This document shows positions 28,286 through 56,946 of a DNA stretch of 64,000 nt, piece by piece. Position 1 is the first letter of the stretch. Every line of letters begins with the position of its first letter. Below the pieces are notes generated by a model. It made no database searches. It saw only the letters and a program-made list of their open reading frames with translations, and had not been told where the DNA came from. Made by a program: the position numbers and the translations under genes. The stretch is taken from contig CAUDUM010000007.1 of NCBI GenBank assembly GCA_958452575.1, forward strand, positions 87,127 to 151,126, written 5' to 3'. Origin of the DNA: an uncultured Eggerthellaceae bacterium. Lineage in GTDB: Bacteria > Actinomycetota > Coriobacteriia > Coriobacteriales > Eggerthellaceae.

Positions 28286-29095
28286 CTAGATGCCGAAAGA
28301 CAGCCCGTCTGAGGCGGCGCGCACGCGGCCGTCGTATTGGCGCAGGAACTCCTCCAGCTCGCTCAGCGTGATGGGCTCGGCGTAGTGCATGCACAGATGC
28401 GTGAGGAAGATCGTGCCTGCCTCGAGCTCCAGGCCCTCTTCGATGGTCTCCTGGACGCTGTGATGCTGATCGGTGGGGCAGCTTTTCCAATAAGTGGCGT
28501 CCAGGGCAAGGAAGTCGACGCCGCGCACGCGCTCTGCGGTGGCCTCGGGCAGCTTGCCGGTATCCGAGGCGTAGAACAGGCGCTTGGCCGGCGTTTCGAT
28601 CAGGTACCCGTAGGTGCCGGGCGCATGGTGCACGGGCAGCGCGGTGTAGCGCACGTCATCGATCTCGATCGACTCGTAGGGCATGATCTCGTGCGTGTCC
28701 AGGCAGTACGTCATGTAGTGGTACTCGTGCGCGATGGTTTCGAGCGTGCCGGGGCTGGCATAGGTCGGCAAGGGGGATTTGGTGCGCAGCTGGACCATGT
28801 ACTCGAGCTCCTCCATGCCGCCGATGTGGTCGGAATGCCCGTGCGTCACCAGCAGCCGATCGATCGCGCGCACACCCTCGCGGTTGAGCTGGTGGCGCAC
28901 GTCGGGCGGCGTGTCGATGAGCGTCGTGGGCCCGCCTTCGCCGACCCTTCGCACCATCGCGCCGCAGTCGCCGCGCCGGGCCTGCGGATGCATGCGCGCC
29001 TCTTGGCAGGCGGGGCACTCGCAGAAAAACGCCGGCACGCCGCAACCGGCGCCGGTCCCCATGAACGTGAAAGTGTGGGTGAGGCTCTCTGCCAT
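28286..29095 (-). CDS. MBL-fold hydrolase, PhnP-like
   Basis: Start at MAESLTHTFTFMGTGAGCGVPAFFCECPACQEA, preceded by GAGGAAGGG. THGHSDHIGG metal motif. Confidence 0.7.
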   Translation of the reverse strand: MAESLTHTFTFMGTGAGCGVPAFFCECPACQEARMHPQARRGDCGAMVRRVGEGGPTTLIDTPPDVRHQLNREGVRAIDRLLVTHGHSDHIGGMEELEYMVQLRTKSPLPTYASPGTLETIAHEYHYMTYCLDTHEIMPYESIEIDDVRYTALPVHHAPGTYGYLIETPAKRLFYASDTGKLPEATAERVRGVDFLALDATYWKSCPTDQHHSVQETIEEGLELEAGTIFLTHLCMHYAEPITLSELEEFLRQYDGRVRAASDGLSFGI

Positions 29096-29270
29096 GGCAG
29101 CCCTTCCTCTCGGACCAACGTGGCAGGAGGCGCCCCCCGCTGCCACATTTGAATAACGCGGCAGGGAGCGTCCCCTGCCGCATGCGCTTCGGTTCAATGG
29201 ACGAGTATAGGCGCAAAGCGCTCTCCGCTTCGAATTTTCATCGCAAAACGCTTGCAAGGGTGGTCTGCCC

Positions 29271-29309
29271 TTGACGCAATGGCTATAATCGACTAGCCGA
29301 TTGCGTCAA
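29271..29309. promoter_or_regulatory. inverted repeat TTGACGCAAT-N19-ATTGCGTCAA bracketing a TATAAT hexamer (candidate operator/promoter)
   Basis: Read directly, with TATAAT at 29284-29289. Lies in the 577-nt divergent region between the MBL gene and the Mo-enzyme operon. Confidence 0.4.
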
Positions 29310-29672
29310 CCATATTCATGTGGAGGATGCGGGGCTTTGCGTACCGAGACGCGCGGGGGCGTGGCTCGGGAACGGGGAGACACATAGCGGAGGCGGTGCC
29401 CCGTCGCCGCGCGAATAATGCGACTCAAAAGGCTGGCCGCGGCGAGCGGTCGGCCTAATGCGGTATTCGGCGCACCTCGTACCGAAAGGTTTACCCGTTC
29501 ATACGATTTAAAGCCCCAAGAGCGATGTGCAAGTTCAGGGCGTTCTATAAACTTGCACCGTTTGCGGGCTGTCTTGAGTCATGGCGGCGGCCCATGCGGC
29601 ATGCGGCCGTGGAAAGACGGCAATGACAATGTAGGTAAAGGCAAGCATGACGAGTAGAAGAGGGGAAGGTAG

Positions 29673-32573
29673 ATGGCGGAGATTTCCAAGGAGTCGCACG
29701 GCCTGAAGGACCTGATGTGTCCCGATATCGTGTCGACCGAAGTCGATGTCAACGCTCCTGGCGTCGAGATGATCAAGTCGCTGTGCTATTTCTGCCACGC
29801 GAACTGCGGTGTTCTCGCATACGTCAAAGACGGTGACGTCATCAAGATCAAAGGCGATCCCGACTACAGCAACAAGGGAGGCCTGTGCTGCCGCGGCACC
29901 AGCGCGCTGCTGCACGTCAATCATCCCGCCCGCGTCAACCACGTGCTCAAGCGCGTCGGCGAGAAGGGCGAGGGCAAGTGGGAGCAGATCCCGTACGATC
30001 AGGGCATCCAGGAGGTCGCTGACCGCCTGAACCAGATCAAGGCCGAAAGCGGCGCCGAGGCTGTCGCCTCCGCCGGCGGCACCACGCGCACCGACGACTT
30101 CGCCCGTCGTCGTTTCCTGAACCTGTTCGGCACCCCGAACGGCTTCCACAACGCGCTGCTGTGCTGGATCCCCACGTTCATGACCGAGACCTGCGTGTGC
30201 GGTTGGTCCCCGTTCGAGACCGACCTGGGCGCTGCGAAGAGCCTGATCCTGTGGGGCATGAACCCCGGCGCCTCCTCGCTGCCCAGCATGCGCGGCTACA
30301 CCGACCTGCAGATGCAGACCGGCCTGAAGATCATCATGGTCGATCCTCGCTACTCCGAGACTGCCTCCAAGGCCGACCTGTGGCTGCCGCTGCGTCCCGG
30401 CTCCGACTCCGCTCTGGCGCTGGCGCTGCTGCACACCATCATCTTCGAGGGCCTGTACGACTGGGAGTTCGTCGAGCAGTGGTGCGACGGCTTCGAGGAG
30501 CTGCAGGATCGCATGGTCGACTACAGCCCCGAGTGGGCATCGACCATCACCTGGCTTGATCCCGAGCAGATCCGCGCCGCCGCGCGCCTGTACGCGATGA
30601 ACAAGCCCGGCTGCATCCAGTGGGGCTGCACGTGGGATCAGATGGGCCGCGCGTCCACCACGGTCGCCCATGCGCTCACGCTCATCCGCGCCATCTGCGG
30701 CAACCTGGACGTCCCCGGCGGCGACGGCATGCCCGGCCCGGCCATCAACTACCTCACCGACGAGGAGATGGAACTCAACGAGCGCCTGCCCGAGGAGCAG
30801 AAGGCCAAGCAGATCGGCTCCAACAAGTTCAAGCTGACCTCCTGGCCCGGCTACCAGCTGATCTCCGACAACGCCAAGCGCACGTGGGGCAAGACCCTGC
30901 CTGCCGAGTGGTTCTGCGAGGCCCACGGCCCCAGCGTCTTCAAGGCGATTCTCACCGGCGATCCGTACCAGGTGCGCGCGCTCATCGTGAACGCCACCAA
31001 CCCGGTGAACTCCTACGGCGACTCCAAGATGACGCTCGCCGCCCTTAAGAAGGTCGAGTTCCTGGTCACCGTCGAGTACTGGATCACCCCGACCGCGCTG
31101 CTGTCCGATTACGTGTTCCCGGCTGCCGGCGCGCTCGAGCGTCCGATCATCGTCACCCACTACGGCGCCACCGACTCCGTCATGGGCGGCCGCCGCGCCA
31201 TCCAGCCCAAGTACGACCGCCACGACGACTTCACCTTCTGGCGCAAGCTGGGCCTGGCCTGCGGTCAGTCCGAGGAGGATTGGCCTTGGGAGACCATCGA
31301 GGAGGCCTACTCCGCGATCATCGCGCCGCTGGGTCTGCCGATCTCCGGTTGGGACGAGTTCGTCGACAACTTCCGCATGTACTATCCGCCGCTGCACCAG
31401 AGCAAGTTCATCAACAACAACGGCTTCTGGACCCCGACGGGCAAGATCGAGTGCAACTCGACCATCATGCGCCAGCTGGGCTACGACGGCATGCCGTCCT
31501 ACACGGGCACTGCCGAGAACCCCGAGGACACGCCGGAGCTGCTGGAGGAGTACCCGCTGGTGCTCACCACGGGCGGCGGCTTCATGCCGTTCCATCACTC
31601 CGAGCACTTCAACATGCCCAACATCCGCTACCTGTATCCGGATCCGTACTTCTACATCAACCCGGAGAAGGCCGCCGAGCTCAACATCGTCCGCGGCGAC
31701 TGGTGCTGGATCGAGACCCGTCGCGGCCGCATCAAGATGCGCGCCAGCGTGGAGCCCATCGTCGATCCTCGCGTGATCATGTGCCCGCGCGGCTGGTGGT
31801 TCCCCGAGCGCGACGGTTCCGCCGACCTGGACAACCCGTTCGGCTGCCTGGAGTCCAACGTCAACACGCTGACCTCCGTCGATGACGAGGACTGCGATCC
31901 CATGGGCGGCTCCTGGTCCAACCGCGGCATGCTGTGCAAGGTCTACAAGTGCGGCGACTTCGACAACGTCTTCAAGCCTGAAGACGCCCAGTTCTCCATC
32001 CCCAGCTCCGCCAAGGAGCCCGGCATCCATGTGATGCCCAGCGAGCAGAAGCTGTGCAAGGAGAAGATCCCGTTCGAGATGCCCGAGTGCACCAAGGAAG
32101 TTCCCGAGGGCTACTACTGGGTGTGGCAGAACGACGGCATCTACCAGAAGGACACGCACTTCAAGCTGGACGACTCCGGCTGGCTGATTGACCCCAAGAC
32201 CAAGGCCTACATCGACCCGCACACCGGTTGGCGCTACGACGGCAACGAGCAGTGCCTGGTCGACGACGCCACGGGCAAGAAGTACACGATGGAGCGCGTC
32301 GAGATCACCTACGTCGCCGGCGTGCGCACCTATCCCGGCCAGGACGCGCCGTACGCGGTGCCCGAGCAGCTGACCTGGGATCAGGAGAAGGGCTACGCCG
32401 TCTTGGGCGACAAGCCGTACGTGTACGATCCCAACAGCGGCTGGATGCTCGATCCCGCTACGGGCGCCTACCATGACGCCTACTACGGCTGGCTGTACGA
32501 CGCCGCGGGCAACTGCCTGGTGGACGAGGCGACGGGCAACCGTTACGACATGTCGTACCAGCCCCTTCAGTAA
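29673..32573 (+). CDS. molybdopterin (bis-PGD) oxidoreductase catalytic subunit, signal-less, with a C-terminal extension of about 200 aa
   Basis: N-terminal CxxCxxxC...C [4Fe-4S] motif (CYFCHANC...CCRG), FGTPN...LLCW region, and molybdopterin and dinucleotide-binding domain-like blocks (GDWCWIETRRGRI). A TAG stop immediately precedes the ATG. Confidence 0.85.
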   Translation: MAEISKESHGLKDLMCPDIVSTEVDVNAPGVEMIKSLCYFCHANCGVLAYVKDGDVIKIKGDPDYSNKGGLCCRGTSALLHVNHPARVNHVLKRVGEKGEGKWEQIPYDQGIQEVADRLNQIKAESGAEAVASAGGTTRTDDFARRRFLNLFGTPNGFHNALLCWIPTFMTETCVCGWSPFETDLGAAKSLILWGMNPGASSLPSMRGYTDLQMQTGLKIIMVDPRYSETASKADLWLPLRPGSDSALALALLHTIIFEGLYDWEFVEQWCDGFEELQDRMVDYSPEWASTITWLDPEQIRAAARLYAMNKPGCIQWGCTWDQMGRASTTVAHALTLIRAICGNLDVPGGDGMPGPAINYLTDEEMELNERLPEEQKAKQIGSNKFKLTSWPGYQLISDNAKRTWGKTLPAEWFCEAHGPSVFKAILTGDPYQVRALIVNATNPVNSYGDSKMTLAALKKVEFLVTVEYWITPTALLSDYVFPAAGALERPIIVTHYGATDSVMGGRRAIQPKYDRHDDFTFWRKLGLACGQSEEDWPWETIEEAYSAIIAPLGLPISGWDEFVDNFRMYYPPLHQSKFINNNGFWTPTGKIECNSTIMRQLGYDGMPSYTGTAENPEDTPELLEEYPLVLTTGGGFMPFHHSEHFNMPNIRYLYPDPYFYINPEKAAELNIVRGDWCWIETRRGRIKMRASVEPIVDPRVIMCPRGWWFPERDGSADLDNPFGCLESNVNTLTSVDDEDCDPMGGSWSNRGMLCKVYKCGDFDNVFKPEDAQFSIPSSAKEPGIHVMPSEQKLCKEKIPFEMPECTKEVPEGYYWVWQNDGIYQKDTHFKLDDSGWLIDPKTKAYIDPHTGWRYDGNEQCLVDDATGKKYTMERVEITYVAGVRTYPGQDAPYAVPEQLTWDQEKGYAVLGDKPYVYDPNSGWMLDPATGAYHDAYYGWLYDAAGNCLVDEATGNRYDMSYQPLQ

Positions 32574-32603
32574 GTAAGCATCGAGTAGGAGAAAGGATAG
32601 GAA

Positions 32604-33182
32604 ATGACTCGTTACGTTATGGTCATCGACCAGCGTCGTTGCATCGGCTGCCACTCCTGCACGGTTGCTTGCCGTGTGTGGAACAAGCTCCCGCTTGACA
32701 TCATTTACAACCCGGTCGTCTCCGAGGGCGTTCAGGGCACCTGGCCCAACGTCCATCGCAACTGGACGCCGCTTTTGTGCATGCACTGCGAGAACCCCGA
32801 GTGCGTGCCCTGCTGCCCCTCCGGCGCAAGCCAGCAGGACGACGACGGCACCGTTTGGGTGGATCCCAAGAAGTGCCTGTCCTGCAAGGTGTGCGTGAAC
32901 GCGTGCCCCTACGGCATGCGCGACGCCTCCCACCTGGAGAACCGCATGCATCGCTTCGTGCGCAAGTGCACGTTCTGCCGTGACAAGCGCCAGCTCGATC
33001 CGGATGCCCAGCCCTACTGCGTGGAGACCTGCCACCAGAAGGCCCGTATCTTCGGCGATCTGGACGATCCGAACAGCGAAGTGTCCAAGCTCATCGGCTC
33101 GGTCAAGACCGACCGCATCTTCACCGAGTTCGGCACCGATCCTCAGATCTACTACATTCCGTGTTTGGGAGGTCAGGCATAA
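32604..33182 (+). CDS. 4x[4Fe-4S] ferredoxin-type electron-transfer subunit (DmsB/PsrB/NrfC-like)
   Basis: Four Cys groups: CIGCHSCTVAC, CMHCENPECVPCCP, CLSCKVCVNACP and CTFC...CVETC. Confidence 0.85.
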   Translation: MTRYVMVIDQRRCIGCHSCTVACRVWNKLPLDIIYNPVVSEGVQGTWPNVHRNWTPLLCMHCENPECVPCCPSGASQQDDDGTVWVDPKKCLSCKVCVNACPYGMRDASHLENRMHRFVRKCTFCRDKRQLDPDAQPYCVETCHQKARIFGDLDDPNSEVSKLIGSVKTDRIFTEFGTDPQIYYIPCLGGQA

Positions 33183-34162
33183 TGAAACATCATTACTGGG
33201 AACCGCCTATCGCCCTGTACCTGTTCCTAGGCGGTCTGGCTGGCGGCATTCTGTTCCTGTCTGCCATTTTCAACAGCTTCGTGATCCCGGGCTATGGCGA
33301 GATCTTCGCCTTCCCGGTGCTCATCGCGCTGATCTGCGTGGCTATCGGCTGCGTGTTCCTGATCATCGACCTGGGCCAGCCCGGCGTGTTCTGGCGCGTG
33401 TGGACCACGGCGACCTCCATCATCAAGTGGGGCGCCACCTTCCTGGTCATCGCCGCCGTGTTCGCGCTGCTGTACCTGCTCGCGTTCCTCGATCAGGCGT
33501 GGCCGATCTTCGGCGGGCTTTCGCAGTTCCTGCTGCCTGCCGCTGACTTCTTCCTGATCGTCGCGGGCTTCTTCGGCCTGTGCATCATGATGTACACCGG
33601 CATCATGCTGTCGACCCTGAAGGCGCATGCGTTCTGGGCCACCCCTGCTCTGCCCGTGCTGTTCACGATCTCCGCTATCTCCACCGGCTGCGCCGCCATC
33701 GTGCTGTCCATCGGCGGTTGGCCGGCTCAGATCACGCTCGAGAGCCTGCTGGCTGCAGCGCTCGTGCTGGAGATCCTGCACATCGTCGACATCGTGCTGG
33801 TCATCGCCGAGCTCATCGTGCTGCTGACCATGGTCCTGTCCTTCGCGGGCGCCGGCAACGTGACCGCCAAGAAGGCCGCGATGCGCTGGATCAAGGGCAA
33901 TTACGCCCTGCTGTTCTGGGTGGGCATGGTCTTCCTGGGCCTGCTCGTCCCGCTGATGATGTACATCGGCGGCGGCCACTCCGCTGCTGCTCAGATCGTG
34001 GCTCCCGTGCTGGTTCTGTGCGGCGGCTGCCTGCTGCGCTTCATGGTCGTCAACACCGACGATCGTGCGGACATCCCGGGCGAGATCCGCTACTACAACC
34101 GTGTTGCCAAGCCTGACGCCGAGTTCGTCAAGAAGTGGGAATACGGCAAGAACCTCTTCTAA
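33182..34162 (+). CDS. NrfD/PsrC-type polytopic membrane anchor
   Basis: ATG overlaps the preceding stop (TAATG). MKHHYWEPPIALYLFLGGLAGG N-terminus, about 8 TM. Confidence 0.75.
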   Translation: MKHHYWEPPIALYLFLGGLAGGILFLSAIFNSFVIPGYGEIFAFPVLIALICVAIGCVFLIIDLGQPGVFWRVWTTATSIIKWGATFLVIAAVFALLYLLAFLDQAWPIFGGLSQFLLPAADFFLIVAGFFGLCIMMYTGIMLSTLKAHAFWATPALPVLFTISAISTGCAAIVLSIGGWPAQITLESLLAAALVLEILHIVDIVLVIAELIVLLTMVLSFAGAGNVTAKKAAMRWIKGNYALLFWVGMVFLGLLVPLMMYIGGGHSAAAQIVAPVLVLCGGCLLRFMVVNTDDRADIPGEIRYYNRVAKPDAEFVKKWEYGKNLF

Positions 34163-34166
34163 TTTC

Positions 34167-34253
34167 GTTCCGCCGGCCTGACGGCCGGCGGAACTGGCCG
34201 CCGCTGCGACCGCCTGAGGCACCTCAGGCGCTCTCGCTGACGTTACGAACGAC
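34167..34253 (+). repeat. intergenic repeat family 1, copy 2 (short form)
   Basis: Hairpin GTTCCGCCGGCC-TGAC-GGCCGGCGGAAC, GCCGCCGCTGC, and 3' anchor CTCGCTGACGTTACGAACGAC (34233-34253). Confidence 0.75.
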
Positions 34254-34312
34254 AAGGGAGGCAATGGCGGTCGAGGGTGATAATTTCGGGGGTGCGACCT
34301 TGCGGTCGGGCC

Positions 34313-34388
34313 CCCGTTTGTTTAGGCTCGCCGTCCTGGTGGGATGCTGCGGCACCCGGCGGCAGGACGGCGGCCCTAGGCAAACGGG
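34313..34388 (+). promoter_or_regulatory. 26-bp imperfect hairpin abutting the RBS of the CCG-protein gene (candidate RNA leader structure)
   Basis: cccgtttgtttaggctcgccgtcctg pairs with caggacggcggccctaggcaaacggg. Three positions are G-U on the + strand RNA only. Confidence 0.5.
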
Positions 34389-34403
34389 AAAAGGGGGTTG
34401 GCA

Positions 34404-35360
34404 ATGTCTGGATACGTGTACGACGACGCGCTGACAGGGAGCCGAGTCACCTGCGGCTATCCAGAACTTTCGGCGTGGGTGGAGCCCGCGCGCGCATCCG
34501 AGGGGGATGCCGCTCCGGTCAAGTCGTTGTATTTCCCGGGGTGCTCGTTCATCAACTACTCGCTGCCGCTTGTCCAGGCGGTGTACGATCTGCTAAAGGG
34601 CGCCGGTCGCGTGGATGGCGTGTCGCTGGTGTGCTGCGGCAAGATCCTGCAGTACGAGCCCAATGGCAAGGAGGTTCGCGCGGCGCACGAAGCGCAGCTG
34701 CGCGAGCACATCCTGAGCACCGGAGTCGAGCGCATCATTACGGCTTGCCCTAATTGCGTGAAGGCGCTGCGCGCCTTGCTGGCGGCCGATGAGCGCACCG
34801 CCGACGTTGAGGTCGTGCCGCTGCCGGTGGAGTTGGCGGAGATGGGCTACCGCATCGATGCCGAGGTGGCTCGCAAGATGGTCGCCACCGCCGTGCCGGA
34901 GTCCGACGCCGCGGCCGGTGGGCTGCCTCATTTCGCCCCGCACGATTCCTGTCCCGATCGCGATACGGGCGAGTTCGCTGACGGCGTTCGCGCTTTGCTT
35001 CCCGAAGGAACGATCCGCGAGGCCGAGCACAACCGACACCGGTCGTTCTGCTGCGGCAGCCTGCTGCGCGCGGCGGGCAAACCGGAGCGCGCATCGGAGC
35101 AGTCGCGCAAGCATGGCCAAGAGGCGGTCGCCGCACAGGCGGATGCCATCGTGACCGCCTGCATGAGCTGCACGTTCCTGCTGTCAAAGGAGCAGCGTGA
35201 CGTTCCGGTGTTCCACTATCTTGAACTGCTGTACGACTGGCGCATCGATTGGGACAACACCCCGCCTTATATGACGCTGCGTTTCCTGTTCGACGAGCCC
35301 GCGCCTTCGGAGGAGTCGCGCCGGACGTTCGTCGGCCTGGATTCCGCCAACGCTGAGTAG
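34404..35360 (+). CDS. (Fe-S) oxidoreductase with two CCG (Cys-rich) domains, HdrB/LutA/GlpC-like
   Basis: PGCSF...VCCGKIL...TACPNC and HDSCPD...SFCCGSL...TACMSC. ATG at 34404 after AAAAGGGGG. Confidence 0.75.
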   Translation: MSGYVYDDALTGSRVTCGYPELSAWVEPARASEGDAAPVKSLYFPGCSFINYSLPLVQAVYDLLKGAGRVDGVSLVCCGKILQYEPNGKEVRAAHEAQLREHILSTGVERIITACPNCVKALRALLAADERTADVEVVPLPVELAEMGYRIDAEVARKMVATAVPESDAAAGGLPHFAPHDSCPDRDTGEFADGVRALLPEGTIREAEHNRHRSFCCGSLLRAAGKPERASEQSRKHGQEAVAAQADAIVTACMSCTFLLSKEQRDVPVFHYLELLYDWRIDWDNTPPYMTLRFLFDEPAPSEESRRTFVGLDSANAE

Positions 35361-35381
35361 AATCGACGGAGCCTCGCGACA

Positions 35382-37619
35382 ATGCAAGAGATCAAACCTA
35401 CGAACTGCCACTACTGCGGATACTGCTGCGCCTTTTTGGCGACGGTGGAGGACGGCCGCGTGATCGACCTTCAGCCTGATCCCACGCGCTATCCGTACGA
35501 CGATCGCATCCTTGCCGGATGCCGTCGCTGGCGCATGAACCTGGCTGCCCTCGACGGGGACGACCGCGTCAACCACCCGCTGCGTCGCGTTGGCGAGCGC
35601 GGCGCCAATCAGTGGGAACGTGTGAGCTGGGATGAGGCGCTCGACGATATCGCGATGCGTTTGCGCGAGCTGGCGGATCAGCATGGCCCCGAAACGCTTG
35701 CCAGCGCCATCGGCGGGCCGCACGCATCGTTTTGGCCGCTCCATCGCTTCATGAACCTGTTCGGCAGCCCCAACAACATGGGTATCGGCCAGATCTGCTG
35801 GAACCCGCGCATCTGGATGGATGCGCTTACGTTCGGATGGACGGTCGAGGCCGACATCACACCCGGTTTGACGGAGTGCCTGTTCATATGGGGCACCAAT
35901 CCCGCGCAATCGGACAACTCGGCGTTCTGGCGCGCCATCATCCAATTCTCCAAGACCGAGGCGTCGCTCGTCGTCATCGACCCGCGCCGCACGCAGGTCG
36001 CGGCGCTGGCGGATATCTGGCTGCCGGTCCGCCCCGGCACCGATTGCACGCTCGCACTGGCCTTCATGCACGTGATCATCGAGGAGGGGTTGGTCGACCG
36101 GGCGTTCCTCGATGAGTGGTGCCATGGGTTCGACGAGCTCGCCGATCACGTGAAGCCCTACACTCCGGCGCGCGCGGCTCGCGAGTGCGGCGTTTCCGAG
36201 GACGACATCGTGCGCGCGGCGCGTCTGTTCGGTGGCGCGCGGGCGGCAGCGCTCGTGTCGGGACGCGGCATCGACCAGGTGGGCGTGAACGTTGCGCCCA
36301 CGCACCGCGCGATCTGCTGTTTGCGTGCCATCACGGGCAACGTCGACAAGCAGGGCGCCTGCGTTTTGGCGGAAGCGAGCGACTTCATCCCCGAGGTCGA
36401 TATGGAGATGACCGACGCGCTGGCTCCCGAGCATCGCGCCCGCTGTCTCAATACGCAGCGCACGCCGCTGCAGTGTTATGAGGGGTACGCGAAGGCGCGC
36501 GAGCTCACCGAGAAGCTGGGGCGCCGTCTGCCGGAGCGCTACCTGACCTCCGCTGCACCCGATCTGGTGCTTCGCGCGATGGAGACGGGCGAGCCGTATC
36601 CGGTGCGCGCGCTCATCGTCAACGCCACCAACCCGCTTATCACTTACGCCGACACCCACCGCGTCTTCAAGGCGTTCATGGGGCTTGACCTTATCGTGGT
36701 GCTCGACTACTACATGACCCCCACGGCGAGCATCGCCGACTATGTTCTGCCGATCGCCGGCGCCATCGAACGCCCGATCTTCCAGGTGCACGGCGGCGTG
36801 GCGAACAACGGCTACGGCGGTCCCGCGGCGGTCGAGCCGTATTACGAACGTCGCACCGATTACGAGGTGTTCCGCGAGTTGGGCCTGCGCCTGGGGCAGG
36901 CCGATGCCTGGCCTCAGGAGACGCTGGAGGATGCGTTTGCCGCGCAGCTGGCCCCTACGGGGATGGATTGGGAAACCTATTGCCAGATCGGCCTGTACTA
37001 TCAACCGCCCGCGTACGAGAAGCACCTGATCACCGGACCGGACGGCGTACCTCGGGGCTTCGCCACCACCACGGGCAAGATCGAGCTTGCCAGCGAGTTT
37101 CTGCCGCAAGTCGGCGGGACGCGGCTCCCCGAGCCGGGTGGGCATCTCTCACTGTGCTCGCCGGAGCTGATCGAGCGCGTCCAGGCGGAAGGCGGAGCGC
37201 ATCTGCGCATGATCACGGGTTCGCGCAAGCAGCCGTACAACGCGTCGATGTACTTCAACAATCCCGAGTTCCGCGCCAAATCGCCTATGCCGGTCGCCGA
37301 GGTCAGCGAGGCGACGGCAGCGCGTCTGGGTCTGGCGGCGGGCGACACGGTGGAGATCGCCACCGACCAGGGCAGCGCGCGGTTCGAGCTGGCGACGGCG
37401 CGGATGCGCGATGATCTGGTCAACGTCGATTACGGTTGGTGGCATCCCGAATGGGAGCCGGGCGCGCCCGATTTCGGCGGCATGTGGGAGTCCAATGTGA
37501 ACTGTCTGACCACCTGCGAGCTGGCTGAGCCGATGATCGGCACCTGGAGCTACAATGACATCGATTGCGTCATCAAGCGCGTCGAAGAGCCGATCAGCTG
37601 GCAGAAAGATCGCCAGTAG
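35382..37619 (+). CDS. second molybdopterin (bis-PGD) oxidoreductase, signal-less, 745 aa
   Basis: CHYCGYCC...C N-terminal Fe-S motif, FGSPNNMGIGQICW, WGTNPAQS, and C-terminal GDTVEIATDQGSARF beta-barrel domain. Confidence 0.85.
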   Translation: MQEIKPTNCHYCGYCCAFLATVEDGRVIDLQPDPTRYPYDDRILAGCRRWRMNLAALDGDDRVNHPLRRVGERGANQWERVSWDEALDDIAMRLRELADQHGPETLASAIGGPHASFWPLHRFMNLFGSPNNMGIGQICWNPRIWMDALTFGWTVEADITPGLTECLFIWGTNPAQSDNSAFWRAIIQFSKTEASLVVIDPRRTQVAALADIWLPVRPGTDCTLALAFMHVIIEEGLVDRAFLDEWCHGFDELADHVKPYTPARAARECGVSEDDIVRAARLFGGARAAALVSGRGIDQVGVNVAPTHRAICCLRAITGNVDKQGACVLAEASDFIPEVDMEMTDALAPEHRARCLNTQRTPLQCYEGYAKARELTEKLGRRLPERYLTSAAPDLVLRAMETGEPYPVRALIVNATNPLITYADTHRVFKAFMGLDLIVVLDYYMTPTASIADYVLPIAGAIERPIFQVHGGVANNGYGGPAAVEPYYERRTDYEVFRELGLRLGQADAWPQETLEDAFAAQLAPTGMDWETYCQIGLYYQPPAYEKHLITGPDGVPRGFATTTGKIELASEFLPQVGGTRLPEPGGHLSLCSPELIERVQAEGGAHLRMITGSRKQPYNASMYFNNPEFRAKSPMPVAEVSEATAARLGLAAGDTVEIATDQGSARFELATARMRDDLVNVDYGWWHPEWEPGAPDFGGMWESNVNCLTTCELAEPMIGTWSYNDIDCVIKRVEEPISWQKDRQ

Positions 37620-37699
37620 AACTGTTAAGAGACACCGGCGACGAACGCGCGGCGCCCGTGCGGGGTCGCCGCGCCGATAGACGAGGAGGAACAAGCCGT

Positions 37700-38578
37700 A
37701 TGGCGGAAAAGAAGCAAGCGTTGCTGCTGTTCAGCAAGCCCCCGGTTTCGGGCAGGGTCAAGACCCGCCTGACCATCGAACATGGCGGGTTCATGACGCC
37801 CGACGAGGCGGCCGATTTCTACAAGCGCTGCCTGTACGATGTGTCCGAGCTGTGCATGCATTCGCTCATCGAGATGCAGCGCGCCAATGACGCCGCGGTC
37901 GCGGCGGATCCGTCCGTGGACAAGATCACCTACGATTTCTTCGTGTCGACGCCCGCTGCCGACATCGACATCATGAAGGCGACCTACGACGAGATCGGCC
38001 CATGGCCCATGGAGATCCACTACCTCACCGACAAGGGTGCCACGTTCGACGATCACTTCGATTACGCTTTCAAGCAGATCTTCGACGAGGGCTACGAGCA
38101 CATCGTATCGGTCGGCGGCGACATCCCCACGCTGCCCAAGTCCCACATCAAGCAGGCGTTCCAGTGGCTCGACTACTTCCAGGCCTGCGGCACGCCGGGC
38201 TTCGTGCAGGCGCCGTGCCAGGAATGCGGCACGTCGCTGGTGGGTTTCAGCTACAACACGCCCATCAACCATCAGGGCATCTATTACAACATGGACGGCC
38301 GTCCCGCGCTCGACGGCTACGTCGAGAAGCTGAAGGCGGCCAACATCCCGTCTGCGTACTTCTCGCCGGTTGCCGATATCGACGAGCGTACCGACCTGGC
38401 CCACGCCATCTCCTGCATGCGCGCGATCGCCGAAGCGGGCAAGTACCAAAACGACGTGTTTGTTCCCCAGCGCGTGCTCGATTGGGTCGACTGGTATGGC
38501 ATCACCGTGTCCACCCCTCCCAACGAGGAGCACGACCCGCGCCAGTACCTCGACGAGGTTGAGGACGAGGAAGAGTAG
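37700..38578 (+). CDS. DUF2064-like (TIGR04282-type) nucleotide-diphospho-sugar-transferase-fold protein
   Basis: ALLLFSKPPVSGRVKTRL N-terminal motif. RBS GAGGAGGA. Confidence 0.6.
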   Translation: MAEKKQALLLFSKPPVSGRVKTRLTIEHGGFMTPDEAADFYKRCLYDVSELCMHSLIEMQRANDAAVAADPSVDKITYDFFVSTPAADIDIMKATYDEIGPWPMEIHYLTDKGATFDDHFDYAFKQIFDEGYEHIVSVGGDIPTLPKSHIKQAFQWLDYFQACGTPGFVQAPCQECGTSLVGFSYNTPINHQGIYYNMDGRPALDGYVEKLKAANIPSAYFSPVADIDERTDLAHAISCMRAIAEAGKYQNDVFVPQRVLDWVDWYGITVSTPPNEEHDPRQYLDEVEDEEE

Positions 38579-38739
38579 TTCCGTTGGCCTACCGGCCAAC
38601 GGAACGAGCCGACGCTGCGGGGAGCCCCCGCACCGAATCTTCGCGCGATCCTGCAGGCTTACGTACCAAAGTGCGCTTCGCCTGCACGATCCCATGAATC
38701 TTCGGCACGGGGGCTCCCCTCGCTGACGTTACGAACGAC
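38578..38739 (+). repeat. intergenic repeat family 1, copy 3
   Basis: Hairpin GTTCCGTTGGCC-TACC-GGCCAACGGAAC, GCCGACGCTGC (38608-38618), TACGTACCAAAGTGCGCTTCGCCT, and CTCGCTGACGTTACGAACGAC (38719-38739). Confidence 0.75.
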
Positions 38740-38741
38740 CA

Positions 38742-40142
38742 GTGAGAAAAGAGATTGTCTTGGCTATTCCAAACAACAACGATTCCGTGAAGGTGGCGCA
38801 CGTTGCCCAGGAGGGCAGCGCGCCGCGCGTTGCCGGGCATCGGCACCTGCACAACACGATCGGCCTGTGCCCGGAGTGCCTGCGCGAGCTGAAGGCCGAC
38901 GTCTACGCCGACGACGAGGGCACCGTGTGGATGGAACGCACCTGCCCCGACCACGGGCCGCTCACCACGCGCGTGTGGCCCGACGCAGACCATTACCAGT
39001 GGCTGCTGTCCGAGGCGTTCCCCAAGACCAAGCCGCAAAACACCATCCCGGCCGGCGCGCCGTGCCCCTTCGGCTGCGGCACGTGCTCGCGCCACGAGCG
39101 TCGCGGCACGCTGCTCGAGATCGAAGTGACCAAAAGCTGCAATCTGCATTGCCCCGTGTGTTTCATGAGCTCCGAGAACGGCGATGACGATCCCACGATG
39201 GATGAGATCGACGCCATGTACGACGTCATCGCCAACGCTGTGGGCACCGACGGCGCCGTTCAGCTGACCGGCGGCGAGCCGACCTGCCGCAAGGATCTGC
39301 CCGAGATCATCTACCATGGCCGCGAGAAGGGCTTCTGGGGCATCGAGGTGAACACGAACGGCCTGGTCATCGCCTCGCGTCCGGGATATCTGGAGGATCT
39401 GGTGGGCGCGGGCCTGACCGGCGTGTACCTGTCGTTCGACGGGCTGACCGGCGATGTGTACGAAGGTACGTGCGGGCGCGACATCCTCGATATCAAGCTG
39501 CGCGTCATCGAGCGCTGCCGCGAGGTGGGCATCCAGTGCGTGCTGTCGGTCGCCGTGGTCGCGGGTCTCAACGACGGTCAGCTGGGCGATCTTCTGCGCT
39601 TCAGCTTGGAGAATTCCGATGTGGTCGCCGGTCTGGCGCTGCAGCCCGCGTTCGTGTCCGGCCGCTTCGAGGCCGAGCGCGCGATGCAGCTGACGGCGGG
39701 CGATGTCATCTTCAAGCTGGCCGAGCAGTCCGACGGGCTCATCGAGCCGCGCGACATCTGGCCGCTCGGCTGCTCCAACCCGTTGTGCGACACCGGCGTG
39801 TTTTTGGTGCGCACCGACGAGGCCGTGCATAAGAGCGGGTTTGTTCCGGCGACGCAGCTGCTCACGCCCGAGGAATACCGCGAAGGCTACAGTCCCGACA
39901 GTCCCCAGGGCTCGGTGTTCCTGGACATCCTGTCCAAACGCGGCGTCAAGGTGAAGGACGGTTTGTCCGTCATCATCATGAACTACATGGACGCCTGGTC
40001 GATGGACGTGCAACGCCTGCGCGAGTGTTCGATGATGGTGACCGTCCCCGACGGCCGCGCCATCCCGTTCTGCTCGTACCACTTGACCGACGCCGACGGC
40101 CGCCGCGTGTATCCGCCCTGGTGCAAGGAAGAGCTGCGTTAA
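38742..40142 (+). CDS. radical SAM enzyme with N-terminal zinc ribbon (COG1964-like architecture)
   Basis: GLCPECL...TCPDHG zinc ribbon, CNLHCPVC (Cx3Cx2C) and a C-terminal IMNYMDAWSMD...PFCSYH block. The exact start codon is uncertain because there is no clear SD. Confidence 0.8.
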   Translation: MRKEIVLAIPNNNDSVKVAHVAQEGSAPRVAGHRHLHNTIGLCPECLRELKADVYADDEGTVWMERTCPDHGPLTTRVWPDADHYQWLLSEAFPKTKPQNTIPAGAPCPFGCGTCSRHERRGTLLEIEVTKSCNLHCPVCFMSSENGDDDPTMDEIDAMYDVIANAVGTDGAVQLTGGEPTCRKDLPEIIYHGREKGFWGIEVNTNGLVIASRPGYLEDLVGAGLTGVYLSFDGLTGDVYEGTCGRDILDIKLRVIERCREVGIQCVLSVAVVAGLNDGQLGDLLRFSLENSDVVAGLALQPAFVSGRFEAERAMQLTAGDVIFKLAEQSDGLIEPRDIWPLGCSNPLCDTGVFLVRTDEAVHKSGFVPATQLLTPEEYREGYSPDSPQGSVFLDILSKRGVKVKDGLSVIIMNYMDAWSMDVQRLRECSMMVTVPDGRAIPFCSYHLTDADGRRVYPPWCKEELR

Positions 40143-40151
40143 TCGTGCGGG

Positions 40152-40271
40152 CGCGGAGCGGAAGGGGCGGGGCTCCGTGCTCAAACAGGTCCTGAGCTCG
40201 CACGAAACGCCCACTGGGCGTTTCGGCTCGTGCGGATACTGCGCGCGGAGCCCCGCCCCTTCCGCTCCGCG
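40152..40271. repeat. palindromic element family 2, copy A
   Basis: 25-bp perfect outer stem (40152-40176 with 40247-40271) enclosing a 70-nt core that is shared, inverted, with 60918-60993. Confidence 0.85.
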
Positions 40272-40408
40272 GCGAGATTATCTTGCTCAGGGACGGGGGT
40301 GTTCGCGCTTTGCGCGAATTGCGGAGGGCCGATTTTGCGCGTCTCTTTCTTATAAGATATGGTCTACTATGCATGAAGCAAGAAGAGTGACCAAGACGAG
40401 AGGTTTAC

Positions 40409-41383
40409 ATGGCTGACTATAGGATTCTTCATGACGACGCCCGTTGCGTGAAGTGCGGGTTGTGCGTGGCGTTTTGTCCATGCAACGTGTTGGAGATGAA
40501 CGACGAGGGGTTCCCGTACGGGGCGCATCCCGATCAGTGCGTCGGGTGCCAGACATGCTCGGGCAACTGCCCTCAGCGCGCGCTGACGATCGAGGCTACG
40601 GGCGACGCCGTTTATGATCCGTTCGCGGACGAGCCGCGCGCCGAGCCTCTGGACAAGGATCGCCGCGCCGAGCTGGCGGAATACCAGCGCGTCATCATGG
40701 ACAAGCTCGGCCTGCGCTGGCAGCCGGTTGCCGTGAGCCTGGTCGAGGCGGACGAGCTGCTGCCCGATGTGCCGATGCCTCCGGAGAACCTGCGCTTCTG
40801 CCAGGCTATGATGGCGGCCCGCCGCGGTGCGAGCATCCTCATGCCTCCCAACAAGCATTCCTGCCCCGATGGCACGTCCATCTTCGGCATGACCGGCGTT
40901 CCCGAGAAGCTTGCCACTGGCGAGATCTACGTGCTGTTCCACAAGCTCGACACCGCCGAAGCGGCTGCGCAGATGGTTGCCGAGCGCCCCACGCTGCCGC
41001 CGCATAGCCGCCGCGCCACCTACGTTGCGCCGCTGAACAAGACGGTGCGTGAGCCGGAGGTGATCGTGTTCACCGGCACGCCCGAGCAGATGATGTGGCT
41101 GTGCATGTCGATGAGCTACTACACCGGCCATCGCTTCGACTTCCATGCGTCGGGCTACAACTCCATGTGCGTGGAGGCAGTGCTCATCCCGATGCGCGAC
41201 AACGAGCCCAACATCACGTTCGGCTGCTACGGCTGCCGCGCGGCAAGCGACATCGGCGAGGACATGATGTTCATGGGCATTCCCACCGACAAGCTGCCCA
41301 CCGTGGTGCGCGGTCTGACCGAGCTTGCGAAAAAGGCGATCCCGCACTCCCGCATGAAGATCTACGTCCCCCCGATCATGTAG
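40409..41383 (+). CDS. 2x[4Fe-4S] ferredoxin domain fused to a DUF169-like domain
   Basis: CVKCGLCVAFCP and CVGCQTCSGNCP, followed by about 260 aa with LRFCQAMMAARRG...HSCPDG (DUF169/COG2043-like). Confidence 0.65.
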   Translation: MADYRILHDDARCVKCGLCVAFCPCNVLEMNDEGFPYGAHPDQCVGCQTCSGNCPQRALTIEATGDAVYDPFADEPRAEPLDKDRRAELAEYQRVIMDKLGLRWQPVAVSLVEADELLPDVPMPPENLRFCQAMMAARRGASILMPPNKHSCPDGTSIFGMTGVPEKLATGEIYVLFHKLDTAEAAAQMVAERPTLPPHSRRATYVAPLNKTVREPEVIVFTGTPEQMMWLCMSMSYYTGHRFDFHASGYNSMCVEAVLIPMRDNEPNITFGCYGCRAASDIGEDMMFMGIPTDKLPTVVRGLTELAKKAIPHSRMKIYVPPIM

Positions 41384-41392
41384 GGAGTCGGG

Positions 41393-41827
41393 ATGTCCGA
41401 TCTGTTCACGCTGCGTGATGCATCGGCGGATGATCTGCCCACGCTCAACGCGTACAACTACAACGAGGGGATGGATGCCTTTTCCTCCGCTGATAACATC
41501 CGCGTCGCGGTGAATGCGGCGGGGGAGATTGTGGGCTACCTGCGCCTGGCATTCAGCCCCGAGGGCGTCGCGCATGTGAACCCCGTGGTCACCTATCCTA
41601 CTTGGCGGGGCTATGGTGTGGGACGAGCGCTCATGGACGAGGCGCTCGAGCGTCATGGCGAGCTGCGGTTCGTGGCGCGCGGCGCATCGGTGGGCTTCTA
41701 CGAGAAGCTGGGCTACCGCGTCATTCCGTGGGAGGACGTGTGCTTGGATGTGGCCGAGGATTGCCGCATCTGCACGCTGGTGGACGAGTGCAAGCCCCAG
41801 CCGATGGGGAAGAAGCTGGGAGAGTAG
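41393..41827 (+). CDS. GNAT family N-acetyltransferase
   Basis: VTYPTWRGYGVGRALMDEALE acetyl-CoA binding motif. Confidence 0.75.
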   Translation: MSDLFTLRDASADDLPTLNAYNYNEGMDAFSSADNIRVAVNAAGEIVGYLRLAFSPEGVAHVNPVVTYPTWRGYGVGRALMDEALERHGELRFVARGASVGFYEKLGYRVIPWEDVCLDVAEDCRICTLVDECKPQPMGKKLGE

Positions 41828-41863
41828 ACCGGCGTCGATCGCGCCATTGCTCTTGTGGCAAGA

Positions 41864-41901
41864 TGGGGTCGGTTTCGCTGATGCGAAGCCGACCCCTGTT
41901 T
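41864..41901. terminator. hairpin plus T-run between convergent GNAT and flavin reductase genes
   Basis: ggggtcggtttcgc-tgat-gcgaagccgacccc followed by tgtttt. Confidence 0.65.
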
Positions 41902-41906
41902 TGTCG

Positions 41907-42488
41907 TCAGTCTAGCTTTACCGTGGCGAACAGATCGTGCTGCACGCACAGCAGAGCGTCGGTGGCGTCGATGCGGCTGCGCTCATCCGATCCTGCGCGC
42001 GACCAAGCGCGATCCACATATCCGATCACCAGCATGTGATCGCCTGCGGGGTCGAGGTGATCGACGCGGCATTCGAACGCGGTCAGCGCACCTGCCAGAG
42101 CGGGCAGCGGCTCACGCGCGCTCTGTTCGGCGGCAGGCAGGAGCCGCCAGTCGACCAACGCGCTTTTGTCGATGACGTTGCCGGTCTTGTTACCGCACGT
42201 CTCGACGGTTGCGACCGCGTCATCCAAATTCGCATCGAGGACGCTGATCGTAAAGCGGCGTGTCGCTCGCACAAGGCCGAACGTATGCGATTTGGTGCGC
42301 AGCGCGAAAGCGACCATGGGCGGAGTGTGCGAGACGGGCGTCGCCCAAGCGACGGTGGCGAATCCGACCTCATCCCCGTCGCGTGCGCCGATGACGGCGA
42401 TCGGCCGCGGCCCCAGCGAAGCGGCGATATCGCGCCCCTCGATAAGGCGCATCGACAGGTCGAGATCCCGTTTGGCCTTCGCGTCCAT
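41907..42488 (-). CDS. flavin reductase-like (FMN-binding split-barrel) protein
   Basis: Start MDAKAK after AAGGAGAAG. IAVIGARDGDEVGFATVAWATPVSHTPPMVAFAL. Confidence 0.7.
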   Translation of the reverse strand: MDAKAKRDLDLSMRLIEGRDIAASLGPRPIAVIGARDGDEVGFATVAWATPVSHTPPMVAFALRTKSHTFGLVRATRRFTISVLDANLDDAVATVETCGNKTGNVIDKSALVDWRLLPAAEQSAREPLPALAGALTAFECRVDHLDPAGDHMLVIGYVDRAWSRAGSDERSRIDATDALLCVQHDLFATVKLD

Positions 42489-42621
42489 AGCTTCTCCTTG
42501 CTGCCCTATCTTGAAAAACCGCGCGTTTCTTCCCGGAACAGAGGCACTATCGGCGCCGATTCGGGAAGAAGCGCGCAAAGTTTGGTGCTCGTGCGTGCGA
42601 TGTCGCCGGAAACGGCGGCTC

Positions 42622-43059
42622 TTACTCTTCGTGCGAGCAGATCGGAGCGTCAGGCAGGTCGATGCCGAGCGCCTGGGCCGCTTGACCGCGCAGCTCCTCA
42701 AGCGTCAACTCGTAGCAGGCCAGCGCATCGATCCAGCGGCGCAGGCAGTGGCGCCCCTTGTCGGTCAGCGTGAACAGACGCTTGGCGGAACCCTCCTCGG
42801 GGGTCTCCCACTCGGAGGTCACCAGTTCGGCTTCCTCCATGCGCTTAAGCGCGCGGTAGATGCCGGTGGCGTCGGGCTTTTTGCCGCCGAACATGGGTGA
42901 ATGGGCTGCTTGCTGCACGATGATGTAGCCGTGCATGGGTTTGTCGTTGGCGGCAAGCAGCGTGAGAATGGTGGGCTGGGACAGGCGGTTGAGCGATTTG
43001 CCCAGCTCGGCGCATTCTTTCAGATCTTCATCGGACTTCGGATGGCAAGAGCTCCACAT
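42622..43059 (-). CDS. PadR family transcriptional regulator
   Basis: PMHGYIIVQQ...GIYRALKRMEEAELVTSEWE...KRLFTLTDKGR. Confidence 0.8.
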   Translation of the reverse strand: MWSSCHPKSDEDLKECAELGKSLNRLSQPTILTLLAANDKPMHGYIIVQQAAHSPMFGGKKPDATGIYRALKRMEEAELVTSEWETPEEGSAKRLFTLTDKGRHCLRRWIDALACYELTLEELRGQAAQALGIDLPDAPICSHEE

Positions 43060-43311
43060 AACGATTCCCCCTCGGGACACAGCGCGCTTCGCTGCTCGCG
43101 GCATCGTGGCGATGCGTAGGCGGCGAAAGCGCGGCAATTCGGTCGGATAGCACGATGACTATCATCCCATAACTATTATCCTAACGCCAATAGTTTCTCG
43201 GAATAATAGAATGTTCCCAAGAATAGTGGAACGTCCCCATGCGGCTGAAGCGCCTCAGGTCGCAAGACGCCCGTTGCGGAGCGCCTGCGCAAGGCGGGAT
43301 TTCCGCCGCAC

Positions 43312-55931: not shown

Positions 55932-55965
55932 TTGACTATATAATTAAACAAGAATAATATTCTTG
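55932..55965 (+). promoter_or_regulatory. candidate modA promoter (TTGACT-N17-TAATAT) overlapped by the 8+1+8 palindrome CAAGAATA-A-TATTCTTG
   Basis: Read directly. -35 at 55932-55937, -10 at 55955-55960, palindrome at 55949-55965. Confidence 0.5.
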
Positions 55966-56037
55966 AACGTGGTACCGACGGGACGTCCTGTCCTTTCGGG
56001 ACAGGAAGGGAATGGACCGAAAAAGGAAGGGATCGAG

Positions 56038-56928: not shown

Positions 56929-56946
56929 GCCAGAGCATGCCCGTTT

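Follow-up and report, generated by a model that had tools for sequence, protein, structure and literature searches.

Two molybdenum- or tungsten-dependent enzymes without export signals, encoded beside an enzyme of the radical S-adenosylmethionine (SAM) type together with several accessory proteins, raise the question of which pathway they serve in an uncultured Eggerthellaceae bacterium. The genes lie in a co-directional block at 29673–41827 of a 64,000-nucleotide (nt) stretch (the window, whose coordinates are used throughout) that corresponds to positions 87,127 to 151,126 of the forward strand of contig CAUDUM010000007.1 in assembly GCA_958452575.1. The initial annotation, made from the letters of the window, could assign the block to no known pathway, and we came to the same view: none of its nine proteins reached the cut-off of an NCBIfam equivalog, no characterized orthologous operon was found, and a literature search found no paper that described this gene combination or mentioned DUF2064. 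Comparison with related loci showed that the genes of the block are inherited together as a single functional unit of the Coriobacteriia, a whole class of gut Actinobacteria, and that the unit is wider than 29673–41827, comprising approximately 12 genes between 28286 and 43137. We proposed, with a probability of roughly 40%, that it encodes a pathway in the cytoplasm, linked to menaquinone, by which an endogenous lipid or cofactor precursor is modified, rather than a respiratory reductase for a dietary compound. The genes of the unit, in which Mo1 and Mo2 are the two molybdenum or tungsten enzymes and rSAM is the radical SAM enzyme, are as follows.

28286–29257, minus strand: metallo-beta-lactamase (MBL)-fold hydrolase, PhnP-like (Lactamase_B_2, PF12706), likely start ATG 29095, divergent from Mo1
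29673–32573, plus strand: Mo1, catalytic subunit with molybdenum- or tungsten-bis(pyranopterin guanine dinucleotide) (Mo/W-bisPGD), 966 amino acids (aa) (PF04879, PF00384, PF01568, two OCRE-like repeats)
32604–33182, plus strand: electron-transfer subunit with four [4Fe-4S] clusters, PsrB/DmsB/NrfC type (PF13247)
33161–34162, plus strand: NrfD/PsrC-type integral membrane, quinol-interacting subunit (PF03916, 114 bits)
34404–35360, plus strand: double-CCG (HdrB/LutA-like) iron–sulfur (Fe-S) protein (PF02754, twice)
35382–37619, plus strand: Mo2, soluble Mo/W-bisPGD enzyme, 745 aa (PF04879, PF00384, PF01568)
37700–38578, plus strand: DUF2064 protein (PF09837)
38742–40142, plus strand: rSAM, radical SAM enzyme with a predicted Tes fold (PF23545 zinc ribbon and PF04055)
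40409–41383, plus strand: Fd-DUF169, fusion of a ferredoxin with two [4Fe-4S] clusters to DUF169 (PF02596, 189 bits)
41393–41827, plus strand: small GNAT acyltransferase, the last plus-strand gene (Pfam)
41907–42701, minus strand: flavin reductase, HpaC/HsaB-like (PF01613, NCBIfam), likely start ATG 42488
42622–43137, minus strand: PadR-family regulator (Pfam), likely start ATG 43058

Nine plus-strand open reading frames (ORFs) with high third-position G+C were found between 29673 and 41827 (the G+C content of the window is approximately 64%), one fewer than the ten counted before, and the upstream MBL hydrolase gene, previously taken for a convergent neighbor, is divergent. The other elements of the earlier description were recovered, as Pfam returned all of the domains named for the nine proteins, and PadR and the flavin reductase are indeed encoded immediately downstream on the minus strand. 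Two gene starts were revised: the NrfD gene probably begins at ATG 33182, overlapping the stop codon of the Fe-S gene, and the DUF2064 gene most likely begins at ATG 37700 rather than at 37565, because a GAGGAGG ribosome-binding site precedes the former ATG.

We addressed the conservation of the block with rSAM as the anchor, using the best 80 of 193 genome hits (species-level loci, including Gordonibacter, Adlercreutzia, Ellagibacter, Raoultibacter, Enterorhabdus, and Parvibacter) and 75 metagenome loci, and counted 143 related loci. The block proteins were compared with these loci by tblastn, with the loci whose DNA covers the expected gene position as denominators. By this count, Mo2 was present in 90 of 91 loci and DUF2064 in 112 of 113, followed by Fd-DUF169 (98/105), GNAT (93/101), the CCG protein (84/88), NrfD (77/82), the four-cluster Fe-S subunit (76/81), and Mo1 (72/77); PadR adjoins the block in 66 of 94 loci, at 63–97% identity. 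Across genera, the block was conserved vertically at 70–83% identity among the genome loci. Exact or near-exact copies of the block proteins are present in Eggerthellaceae, and the closest genome locus among the matches listed is that of Candidatus Aphodovivens avicola (98–100% identity). Within Eggerthellaceae the flanking genes are syntenic too, with the gene order kept beyond the block, so that unrelated operons staying adjacent in a slowly rearranging region would also be consistent with this pattern, as they would with the hairpin-bearing gaps that break the block here without obvious coupling. However, distant Coriobacteriia lineages, retrieved by a search of 1.8 billion representative proteins and a follow-up search, keep the set (rSAM 50–58% identical) amid unrelated flanks and with gene overlaps of 4–8 nt. 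Three such loci (L081, L082, and L083; rSAM 54–58% identical to that of the window) carry the whole set with quite different neighbors, and in L083 the stop and start codons of neighboring genes overlap. Another, L138, has a permuted and tightly packed order (MBL, Mo1, Fe-S, NrfD, rSAM, Mo2, DUF2064, Fd-DUF169, GNAT), without the CCG protein and without the C-terminal tail of Mo1, and in L081-type contigs the operon runs on into the flavin reductase and then into a single GNAT::MBL fusion protein. Chance adjacency, which the initial annotation had named as the alternative to a real association, was thus rejected, because the genes are kept together across genera and deep Coriobacteriia lineages, amid different neighbors, with overlapping frames, in permuted order, or with two members fused; we consider mere synteny very improbable.

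The same lineages define the extent of the unit. The MBL hydrolase, flavin reductase, and PadR were included because in other lineages they are fused to, co-directional with, or adjoining the block: the MBL half of the L081-type fusion (GNAT N-terminal, MBL C-terminal) is 45% identical to the MBL hydrolase of the window, and the flavin reductase of these contigs is 34% identical to the product of 41907–42701; the MBL hydrolase gene is co-directional and directly upstream of Mo1 in L089 and L138; and PadR and the flavin reductase are co-directional, downstream of the block, in L092. At the other extreme, L084, L090, and L092 retain only Mo2, DUF2064, rSAM, Fd-DUF169, and GNAT (L090 also retains the CCG protein), and these five genes thus form the minimal core. 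The usual additions to this core are the Mo1/Fe-S/NrfD module, the CCG protein, the PhnP-like MBL hydrolase, the flavin reductase, and PadR. No conserved transporter was observed beside the block in any lineage examined. The membrane module appears to be separable from the block, being missing at its usual place in 5 of the 77 loci with a full upstream flank (L043, L047, L048, L077, and L092), in which the remainder is intact. As a separate observation, an rSAM orthologue of 71% identity stands alone on a 14-kb metagenome contig (L132:4428-5741) that holds no other block gene.

Mo1 and Mo2 had been described as signal-less Mo/W-bisPGD enzymes, and both parts of this description were reproduced. 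In each protein PF04879, PF00384, and PF01568 scored above the gathering cut-off, giving the three-domain architecture of this superfamily, and inspection of Mo1, Mo2, and the four-cluster Fe-S subunit revealed neither a twin-arginine (RR) motif nor room for a twin-arginine translocation (Tat) or Sec signal, the first cluster cysteine being residue 38, 9, and 13, respectively. In Mo1 and its orthologues, 22–37 residues precede this cysteine, again with no RR motif. Compared with acetylene hydratase (2e7z), Mo1 scored 366 bits over aa 37–760 and Mo2 scored 326 bits, against 195 and 164 bits for the Psr/Phs enzymes (the next best for Mo1), and by these scores both would belong to the acetylene-hydratase clade. 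The cluster residues Cys38/41/45/72, together with His42, are invariant in the 66–67 covering alignments of Mo1 orthologues, and the metal-ligand Cys164 is kept in 66 of 68; in Mo2, Cys9/12/16/47 are invariant and the metal-ligand Cys139 is kept in 107 of 109. The position of the catalytic Asp13 of acetylene hydratase is occupied by His42 in Mo1 and Gly13 in Mo2, each invariant among orthologues. Because the cluster and ligand cysteines are kept and the catalytic Asp is replaced, both proteins are very probably active Mo/W enzymes, yet not acetylene hydratases. The resemblance to the enzyme of Pelobacter/Syntrophotalea acetylenica covers the N-terminal [4Fe-4S] motif, the cysteine metal ligand, the cytoplasmic location, and an alignment of the whole catalytic core; however, beyond the replaced Asp13, that enzyme is a stand-alone monomer, whereas Mo1 is accompanied by Fe-S and NrfD partners and extended by an OCRE-like tail, and the partners of Mo2 are CCG and ferredoxin proteins.

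Mo1 and its two partners correspond to the alpha/beta/gamma organization of the Psr, Phs, and Ttr complexes, with adjacent genes, and in NCBIfam the Fe-S subunit best matched NrfC/ArrB/TtrB, and the anchor best matched NrfD. However, the scores are far below the equivalog cut-offs (PhsA, the best model for Mo1, 281.7 bits against 694; TtrA, 79.8 against 1750; the NrfC, ArrB, TtrB, and DsrO models all below cut-off for the Fe-S subunit, in which four cysteine groups were found), the catalytic subunit is acetylene-hydratase-like, and Tat export is lacking. Since Mo1 has no Tat signal, which is unusual for an anchored-type enzyme, the complex is predicted to face the cytoplasm, and the catalytic parts of the block, none of which carries an export signal, are all predicted to be cytoplasmic. 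The arrangement presumably resembles that of SoeABC. Mo1, the Fe-S subunit, and NrfD would be a new variant, turned toward the cytoplasm, among the complex iron-sulfur molybdoenzymes.

The C-terminal extension of Mo1, approximately 200 aa long, is conserved in orthologues. Its tail (approximately residues 800–966; window approximately 32070–32570) holds two repeats rich in Tyr, Trp, and Asp that match the eukaryotic OCRE domain (PF17780, E = 6e-16), and these repeats number three in L083, where the protein has 1048 aa, and are absent in L138. The CCG protein is the fastest-evolving member of the block, being 26–31% identical to its L081 and L083 counterparts, the latter of which bears an extra ferredoxin domain; it is absent in L084 and L138 and is therefore dispensable. 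It matched the NCBIfam model "dicluster near Sec" below cut-off, and a search of the Protein Data Bank (PDB) returned nothing for it.

In the radical SAM enzyme, an N-terminal zinc ribbon is accompanied by two CX3CX2C motifs and by a C-terminal domain that is conserved. The two closest curated families both matched it below their cut-offs: TrsS (NF045646) at 348 bits against 490, over profile positions 2–330 of 441, and Tes (NF045702) at 296.8 bits against 450. A profile of 58 sequences of the rSAM family aligned with GDGT-MAS/Tes (7tol) at 422 bits over the full length, and an AlphaFold2 model of the protein (pLDDT 87.7) was matched by Foldseek to 7tom with TM-scores of 0.79/0.74 over 480 columns at 29% identity, the next-best folds reaching a TM-score of only approximately 0.4. 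On this modeling, rSAM is predicted to have the tetraether-synthase (GDGT-MAS/Tes) fold. It shares with Tes and TrsS the zinc ribbon, both CX3CX2C motifs, a C-terminal "MDA...IPFC.Y" motif, and the fold of the whole chain, but lacks the C-terminal insertion of approximately 60 residues found in Tes and scores below the curated cut-off; it differs from TrsS in having neither selenocysteine nor an MbdU/DUF5714 partner, and Pfam found no DUF5714/MbdU in any block protein. We know of no archaeol lipids made by the host. The start of the gene is uncertain because orthologues do not align with residues 1–25, which are also disordered in the model, and the true start probably lies 10–30 codons downstream of 38742.

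The properties of TrsS were reconstructed from NCBIfam and Pfam scans of rSAM relatives. Relatives at 35–40% identity are true TrsS proteins that pass the cut-off, some of them fused to MbdU/DUF5714; in other near relatives the fusion partner is a MobA-like nucleotidyltransferase (in some cases with an HD domain as well), a methyltransferase, or AMP-binding domains. A transferase and an rSAM of this type thus appear to form a recurrent pair, which supports the proposed modification pathway. Two further systems were considered as models and rejected: the bacterial lipid synthase Mss, which is not a Tes homologue, and the metallopterin ergothioneine synthase, which is too distant and whose desulfurase partner is missing here. 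In Archaea, mostly haloarchaea, Tes homologues related to rSAM (L085:7503-10164, L086:3175-5297, and L087:8001-10165) always have a translationally coupled SAM methyltransferase downstream of them, and the homologue of Halorarius also adjoins an ArsC-like LMWPc protein, PadR, thioredoxin, DsrE, and TauE. The function of the haloarchaeal homologues is unknown (PMC8941075), and these neighbors may be a clue to it. Separately, the 90%-identity clusters of rSAM (P0110 and P0117) list members annotated as DUF169 (P0559) and DUF2064 (P0574), which blastp identified as products of the neighboring genes; these mixed clusters are either a database artifact or read-through or fused gene calls.

Among the accessory proteins, DUF2064 scored 48 bits against a Pfam cut-off of 25.8, and 59.9 against 134 for TIGR04282; its sole PDB relative is 3cgx, an uncharacterized protein of the nucleotide-diphospho-sugar transferase fold. 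It is accordingly predicted to be a nucleotidyl- or glycosyltransferase of the GT-A fold, similar to CofC and MobA. In Fd-DUF169, five residues (Cys131, His150, Cys152, Cys254, and Cys273) are invariant in an alignment of 12 orthologues. Sequence and profile searches of the PDB found no solved relative of DUF169, the literature search yielded incidental mentions only, and a PHROGs scan of the fusion protein returned nothing relevant. The possibility that DUF169 corresponds to MbdU was rejected, as it has no similarity to the MbdU part of P0226. The MBL hydrolase matched two NCBIfam models below their cut-offs, the GPMC-system MBL at 118.6 bits and PhnP (TIGR03307) at 114.7 bits against 272. 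Taken together, the parts of the unit come from known superfamilies, and the association of a Tes-fold rSAM, DUF2064, and DUF169 with a molybdenum module has no described counterpart.

How these parts might cooperate in the proposed pathway can be outlined as follows. The DUF2064 transferase would tag a molecule with a nucleotide or sugar-phosphate handle, after which the Tes-fold rSAM, reduced through the ferredoxin domain of Fd-DUF169, would carry out a radical reaction at an unactivated carbon. Mo2 and Mo1 would then perform oxygen-atom chemistry of the acetylene-hydratase or dehydroxylase type, that is, hydration, hydroxylation, or reductive dehydroxylation. Electrons would pass between Mo2 and its ferredoxin or CCG partners and, via the Fe-S and NrfD subunits, between Mo1 and the menaquinone pool. 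Finally, the PhnP-like phosphodiesterase would strip off the handle and the GNAT protein would acylate an amine, and PadR would control expression. We favored an endogenous substrate because the unit is inherited vertically across the class, lies in a housekeeping neighborhood, has no conserved transporter, and is associated with partners of biosynthesis type. The more specific proposal, that this is a previously unknown Coriobacteriia pathway in which the Tes-fold rSAM and the two acetylene-hydratase-type Mo/W enzymes, one of them connected to the menaquinone pool from the cytoplasmic face, together build or remodel an endogenous molecule such as a new membrane lipid, a quinone, or a pterin-type cofactor, is advanced somewhat more tentatively.

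Several points weigh against such a pathway. No component has a characterized orthologue, so that every catalytic step of the scheme is inferred. Synteny within Eggerthellaceae is by itself weak evidence, and it is the deeper lineages that carry the argument for a unit. Some Tes homologues have roles that are unknown or do not concern lipids, the haloarchaeal ones being paired with methyltransferases, and the combination of PadR with an HpaC-like flavin reductase is typical of responses to phenolic or toxic compounds. Within the same bacterial family, catabolic catechol dehydroxylases are the sole members of this molybdoenzyme clade to have been characterized (PMC7028382), and an indirect reading of the same study indicates that Eggerthella lenta may be without the block, which would oppose an essential housekeeping role.

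The catechol dehydroxylases also form the basis of the main rival explanation, in which the unit would catabolize or respire an exogenous aromatic compound by reductive dehydroxylation of the catechol or phenol type. Here, the Mo1/Fe-S/NrfD complex would draw electrons from menaquinol, Mo2 would be a Cldh/Dodh-like enzyme, rSAM, DUF2064, GNAT, and MBL would process the substrate, and PadR would sense the phenolic. A published phylogeny places the Eggerthellaceae catechol dehydroxylases beside acetylene hydratase, the closest relative of both Mo1 and Mo2, and the same family holds both Tat-exported, anchored dehydroxylases (Dadh/Hcdh/Cadh) and small, signal-less, soluble ones (Cldh/Dodh), of which those of Gordonibacter adjoin major facilitator superfamily (MFS) transporters and have a small Fe-S partner (PMC7028382). 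The unit thus shares with these enzymes the bacterial family, the clade, and both the three-subunit (molybdenum, Fe-S, and anchor) and the soluble signal-less architectures, and the block is linked to genes for a PadR regulator and an HpaC/HsaB-like flavin reductase. The initial annotation had tentatively read the neighborhood as a weak fit to an aromatic or phenolic substrate, and the clade and PadR do agree with this idea; however, the vertical, class-wide conservation, the lack of a transporter, and the biosynthesis-type partners oppose a diet-specific substrate. Known dehydroxylases vary by strain or genus, the soluble ones being found in few genera and beside MFS transporters, whereas the block is class-wide, vertically inherited, without a conserved transporter, and tied to a Tes-type rSAM, DUF2064, and DUF169, which occur in no known dehydroxylase locus. 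In addition, the anchored dehydroxylases bear Tat signals but Mo1 has none, and a membrane-anchored enzyme facing the cytoplasm would require import of its substrate. On balance, we consider an aromatic substrate of this kind unlikely.

A different role for the accessory genes would be maturation, in which their products would supply Mo1 and Mo2 alone with a variant pterin cofactor or a special metal-site ligand, by building or inserting it. In support of this, the MoaA models and structures are the best relatives of rSAM after Tes, the zinc-ribbon Pfam family of rSAM is named after a pterin C-methylase, the DUF2064 protein is MobA/CofC-like in fold, close relatives of rSAM carry a fused MobA-like NTP_transf_3 domain, the MBL hydrolase resembles PhnP, a cyclic-phosphate phosphodiesterase, and the accessory set always stands beside Mo2. 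Nevertheless, the similarity to MoaA is generic to radical SAM cores (TM-score approximately 0.4 vs. 0.79 for Tes), standard moaA and moaC genes are present in the window, GNAT, the flavin reductase, and PadR would be left without a role, and a modified bis-PGD cofactor would be without precedent; we judged maturation to be even less likely than an aromatic substrate. The chemistry of a metalloid or inorganic element (As, Se, Te, or S) is yet another reading, with cytoplasmic oxyanion reduction by the molybdenum enzymes, a carbon–element compound made by rSAM and the transferase, and finishing or detoxification by GNAT and the hydrolase. It draws on TrsS, which comes closest among named rSAM families and in which fusion to, or pairing with, the "metal-binding" MbdU/DUF5714 is frequent, on the sole named DUF2064 family, which is annotated as arsenosugar biosynthesis and, as we take it, adjoins the radical SAM protein ArsS and a phosphoesterase, on the haloarchaeal relatives beside a methyltransferase, in one genome also with the ArsC-like LMWPc protein, thioredoxin, DsrE, and TauE, and on the match of the CCG protein to the "dicluster near Sec" model. 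The combination of rSAM, a DUF2064-type transferase, and a phosphoesterase does resemble the ArsS/TIGR04282 "arsenosugar" neighborhood, and the GNAT beside a PhnP-like MBL phosphodiesterase, fused in L081, resembles the PhnO–PhnP pair of the C-P lyase operon. However, all such family scores are below cut-off, the rSAM of the block is Tes-like rather than ArsS or PhnJ, no ars or phn genes lie near the block, and no molybdenum enzymes are known in those systems; neither the block nor its immediate surroundings contain MbdU, a methyltransferase, ArsC, or ars or sel genes; Mo1 and Mo2 are far nearer to acetylene hydratase than to ArrA, Psr, or Ttr; and the analogy comes from annotation names rather than from experiments. 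We therefore regard element chemistry as improbable, and both it and maturation rest on analogies and sub-threshold family matches.

The distinction between an endogenous and an exogenous substrate matters because Eggerthellaceae are prominent gut transformers of drugs and dietary compounds, and at present all of their many acetylene-hydratase-type molybdoenzymes are taken to be candidate catechol dehydroxylases. Two such enzymes belong here to an old, vertically inherited, class-wide module with biosynthesis-type partners and no transporter. If a lipid or cofactor role is correct, part of this enzyme family would need re-annotation, and the unit would provide the first biosynthetic role for this molybdoenzyme clade in gut Actinobacteria and would place DUF2064, DUF169, and a bacterial Tes homologue in a functional setting for the first time, while a cytoplasm-facing, menaquinone-linked Mo/Fe-S/NrfD complex would join the known respiratory-type architectures. 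If the unit instead reduces a compound common in the gut, most members of the family would metabolize this compound. The question is directly testable because genetic tools exist for these bacteria (PMC9734109).

The noncoding parts of the unit comprise the divergent control region, three internal gaps, and a terminator.

29096–29672, no strand assigned: control region separating the divergent MBL and Mo1 genes (8-species alignment)
34163–34403, plus strand: gap with a terminator-like hairpin (34168–34195), a REP-like 20-mer (34234–34253), and a long hairpin (34313–34388)
38579–38741, plus strand: gap with a hairpin of 40-nt arms (38619–38719) and the same REP-like 20-mer (38720–38739)
40143–40408, plus strand: gap with a hairpin of 32-nt arms (40152–40271)
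41865–41896, plus strand: intrinsic terminator, a 14-bp stem followed by a T run, which closes the plus-strand block

In the divergent region, which is approximately 580 nt long, sequence blocks and an invariant ribosome-binding region are conserved across the eight species, and two palindromes (approximately 29276–29306 and 29528–29557, the second occurring once in the window) span TATAAT- and TATAAA-like boxes. Operators and promoters are the probable identity of these palindromes and blocks. A palindrome also lies upstream of padR, but it is not the same as those preceding Mo1, so that a shared PadR operator was not proposed. A structured RNA or riboswitch in the Mo1 leader was considered and rejected, as the covariation term of RNAalifold was positive (unfavorable) and no Rfam match was obtained: the whole window gave none at gathering thresholds, and permissive E-values for 29000–42200 gave only meaningless microRNA and small nucleolar RNA matches.

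The structured repeats noted earlier in the gaps were recovered as the three long hairpins at 34313–34388, 38619–38719, and 40152–40271, which fold considerably better than shuffled sequences (z of -3.6 to -9.6, the last hairpin having z = -9.6). A 20-nt motif, TCGCTGACGTTACGAACGAC, is found just 3' of long GC-rich hairpins, with exact copies at 34234–34253 and 38720–38739 and a copy with 3 mismatches at 7079–7098, upstream of hypF. It also occurs at L001:9920-9938, L002:11498-11516, L011:5589-5607, and L026:5430-5448, in different gaps of the block in different species, and looks like a mobile intergenic element of the repetitive extragenic palindromic (REP) type rather than an operon regulator. 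Block-specific regulation by the gap hairpins was rejected because the associated 19–20-mer lies in gaps that differ from species to species and once near hypF. Thus, the division into approximately four transcription units that had been drawn from these gaps is plausible in this genome, but it is lineage-specific, since the genes overlap elsewhere and the hairpins appear to be mobile and REP-like.

Elsewhere, the window has the character of an ordinary core chromosome, with hypF, hypD, cytochrome bd oxidase (cydAB), trkA, purB, glmS, acpS, and ligA. Upstream of the block, the hydrogenase maturation genes hypF and hypD, together with those for subunits I and II of cytochrome bd oxidase (7110–13909), form an ordinary respiratory housekeeping context, and approximately 14 kb downstream, as the initial annotation had stated, ModA/B/C-like genes, moaA, and moaC are found at 55963–61581. 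A short overlapping ORF at 43181–43570 was matched in just 3 of the best 80 of 193 genome loci. Beyond PadR, the interval 43312–45110 encodes a second, unrelated MBL-fold hydrolase (Strvi_7410-like, minus strand) and a CrcB fluoride channel.

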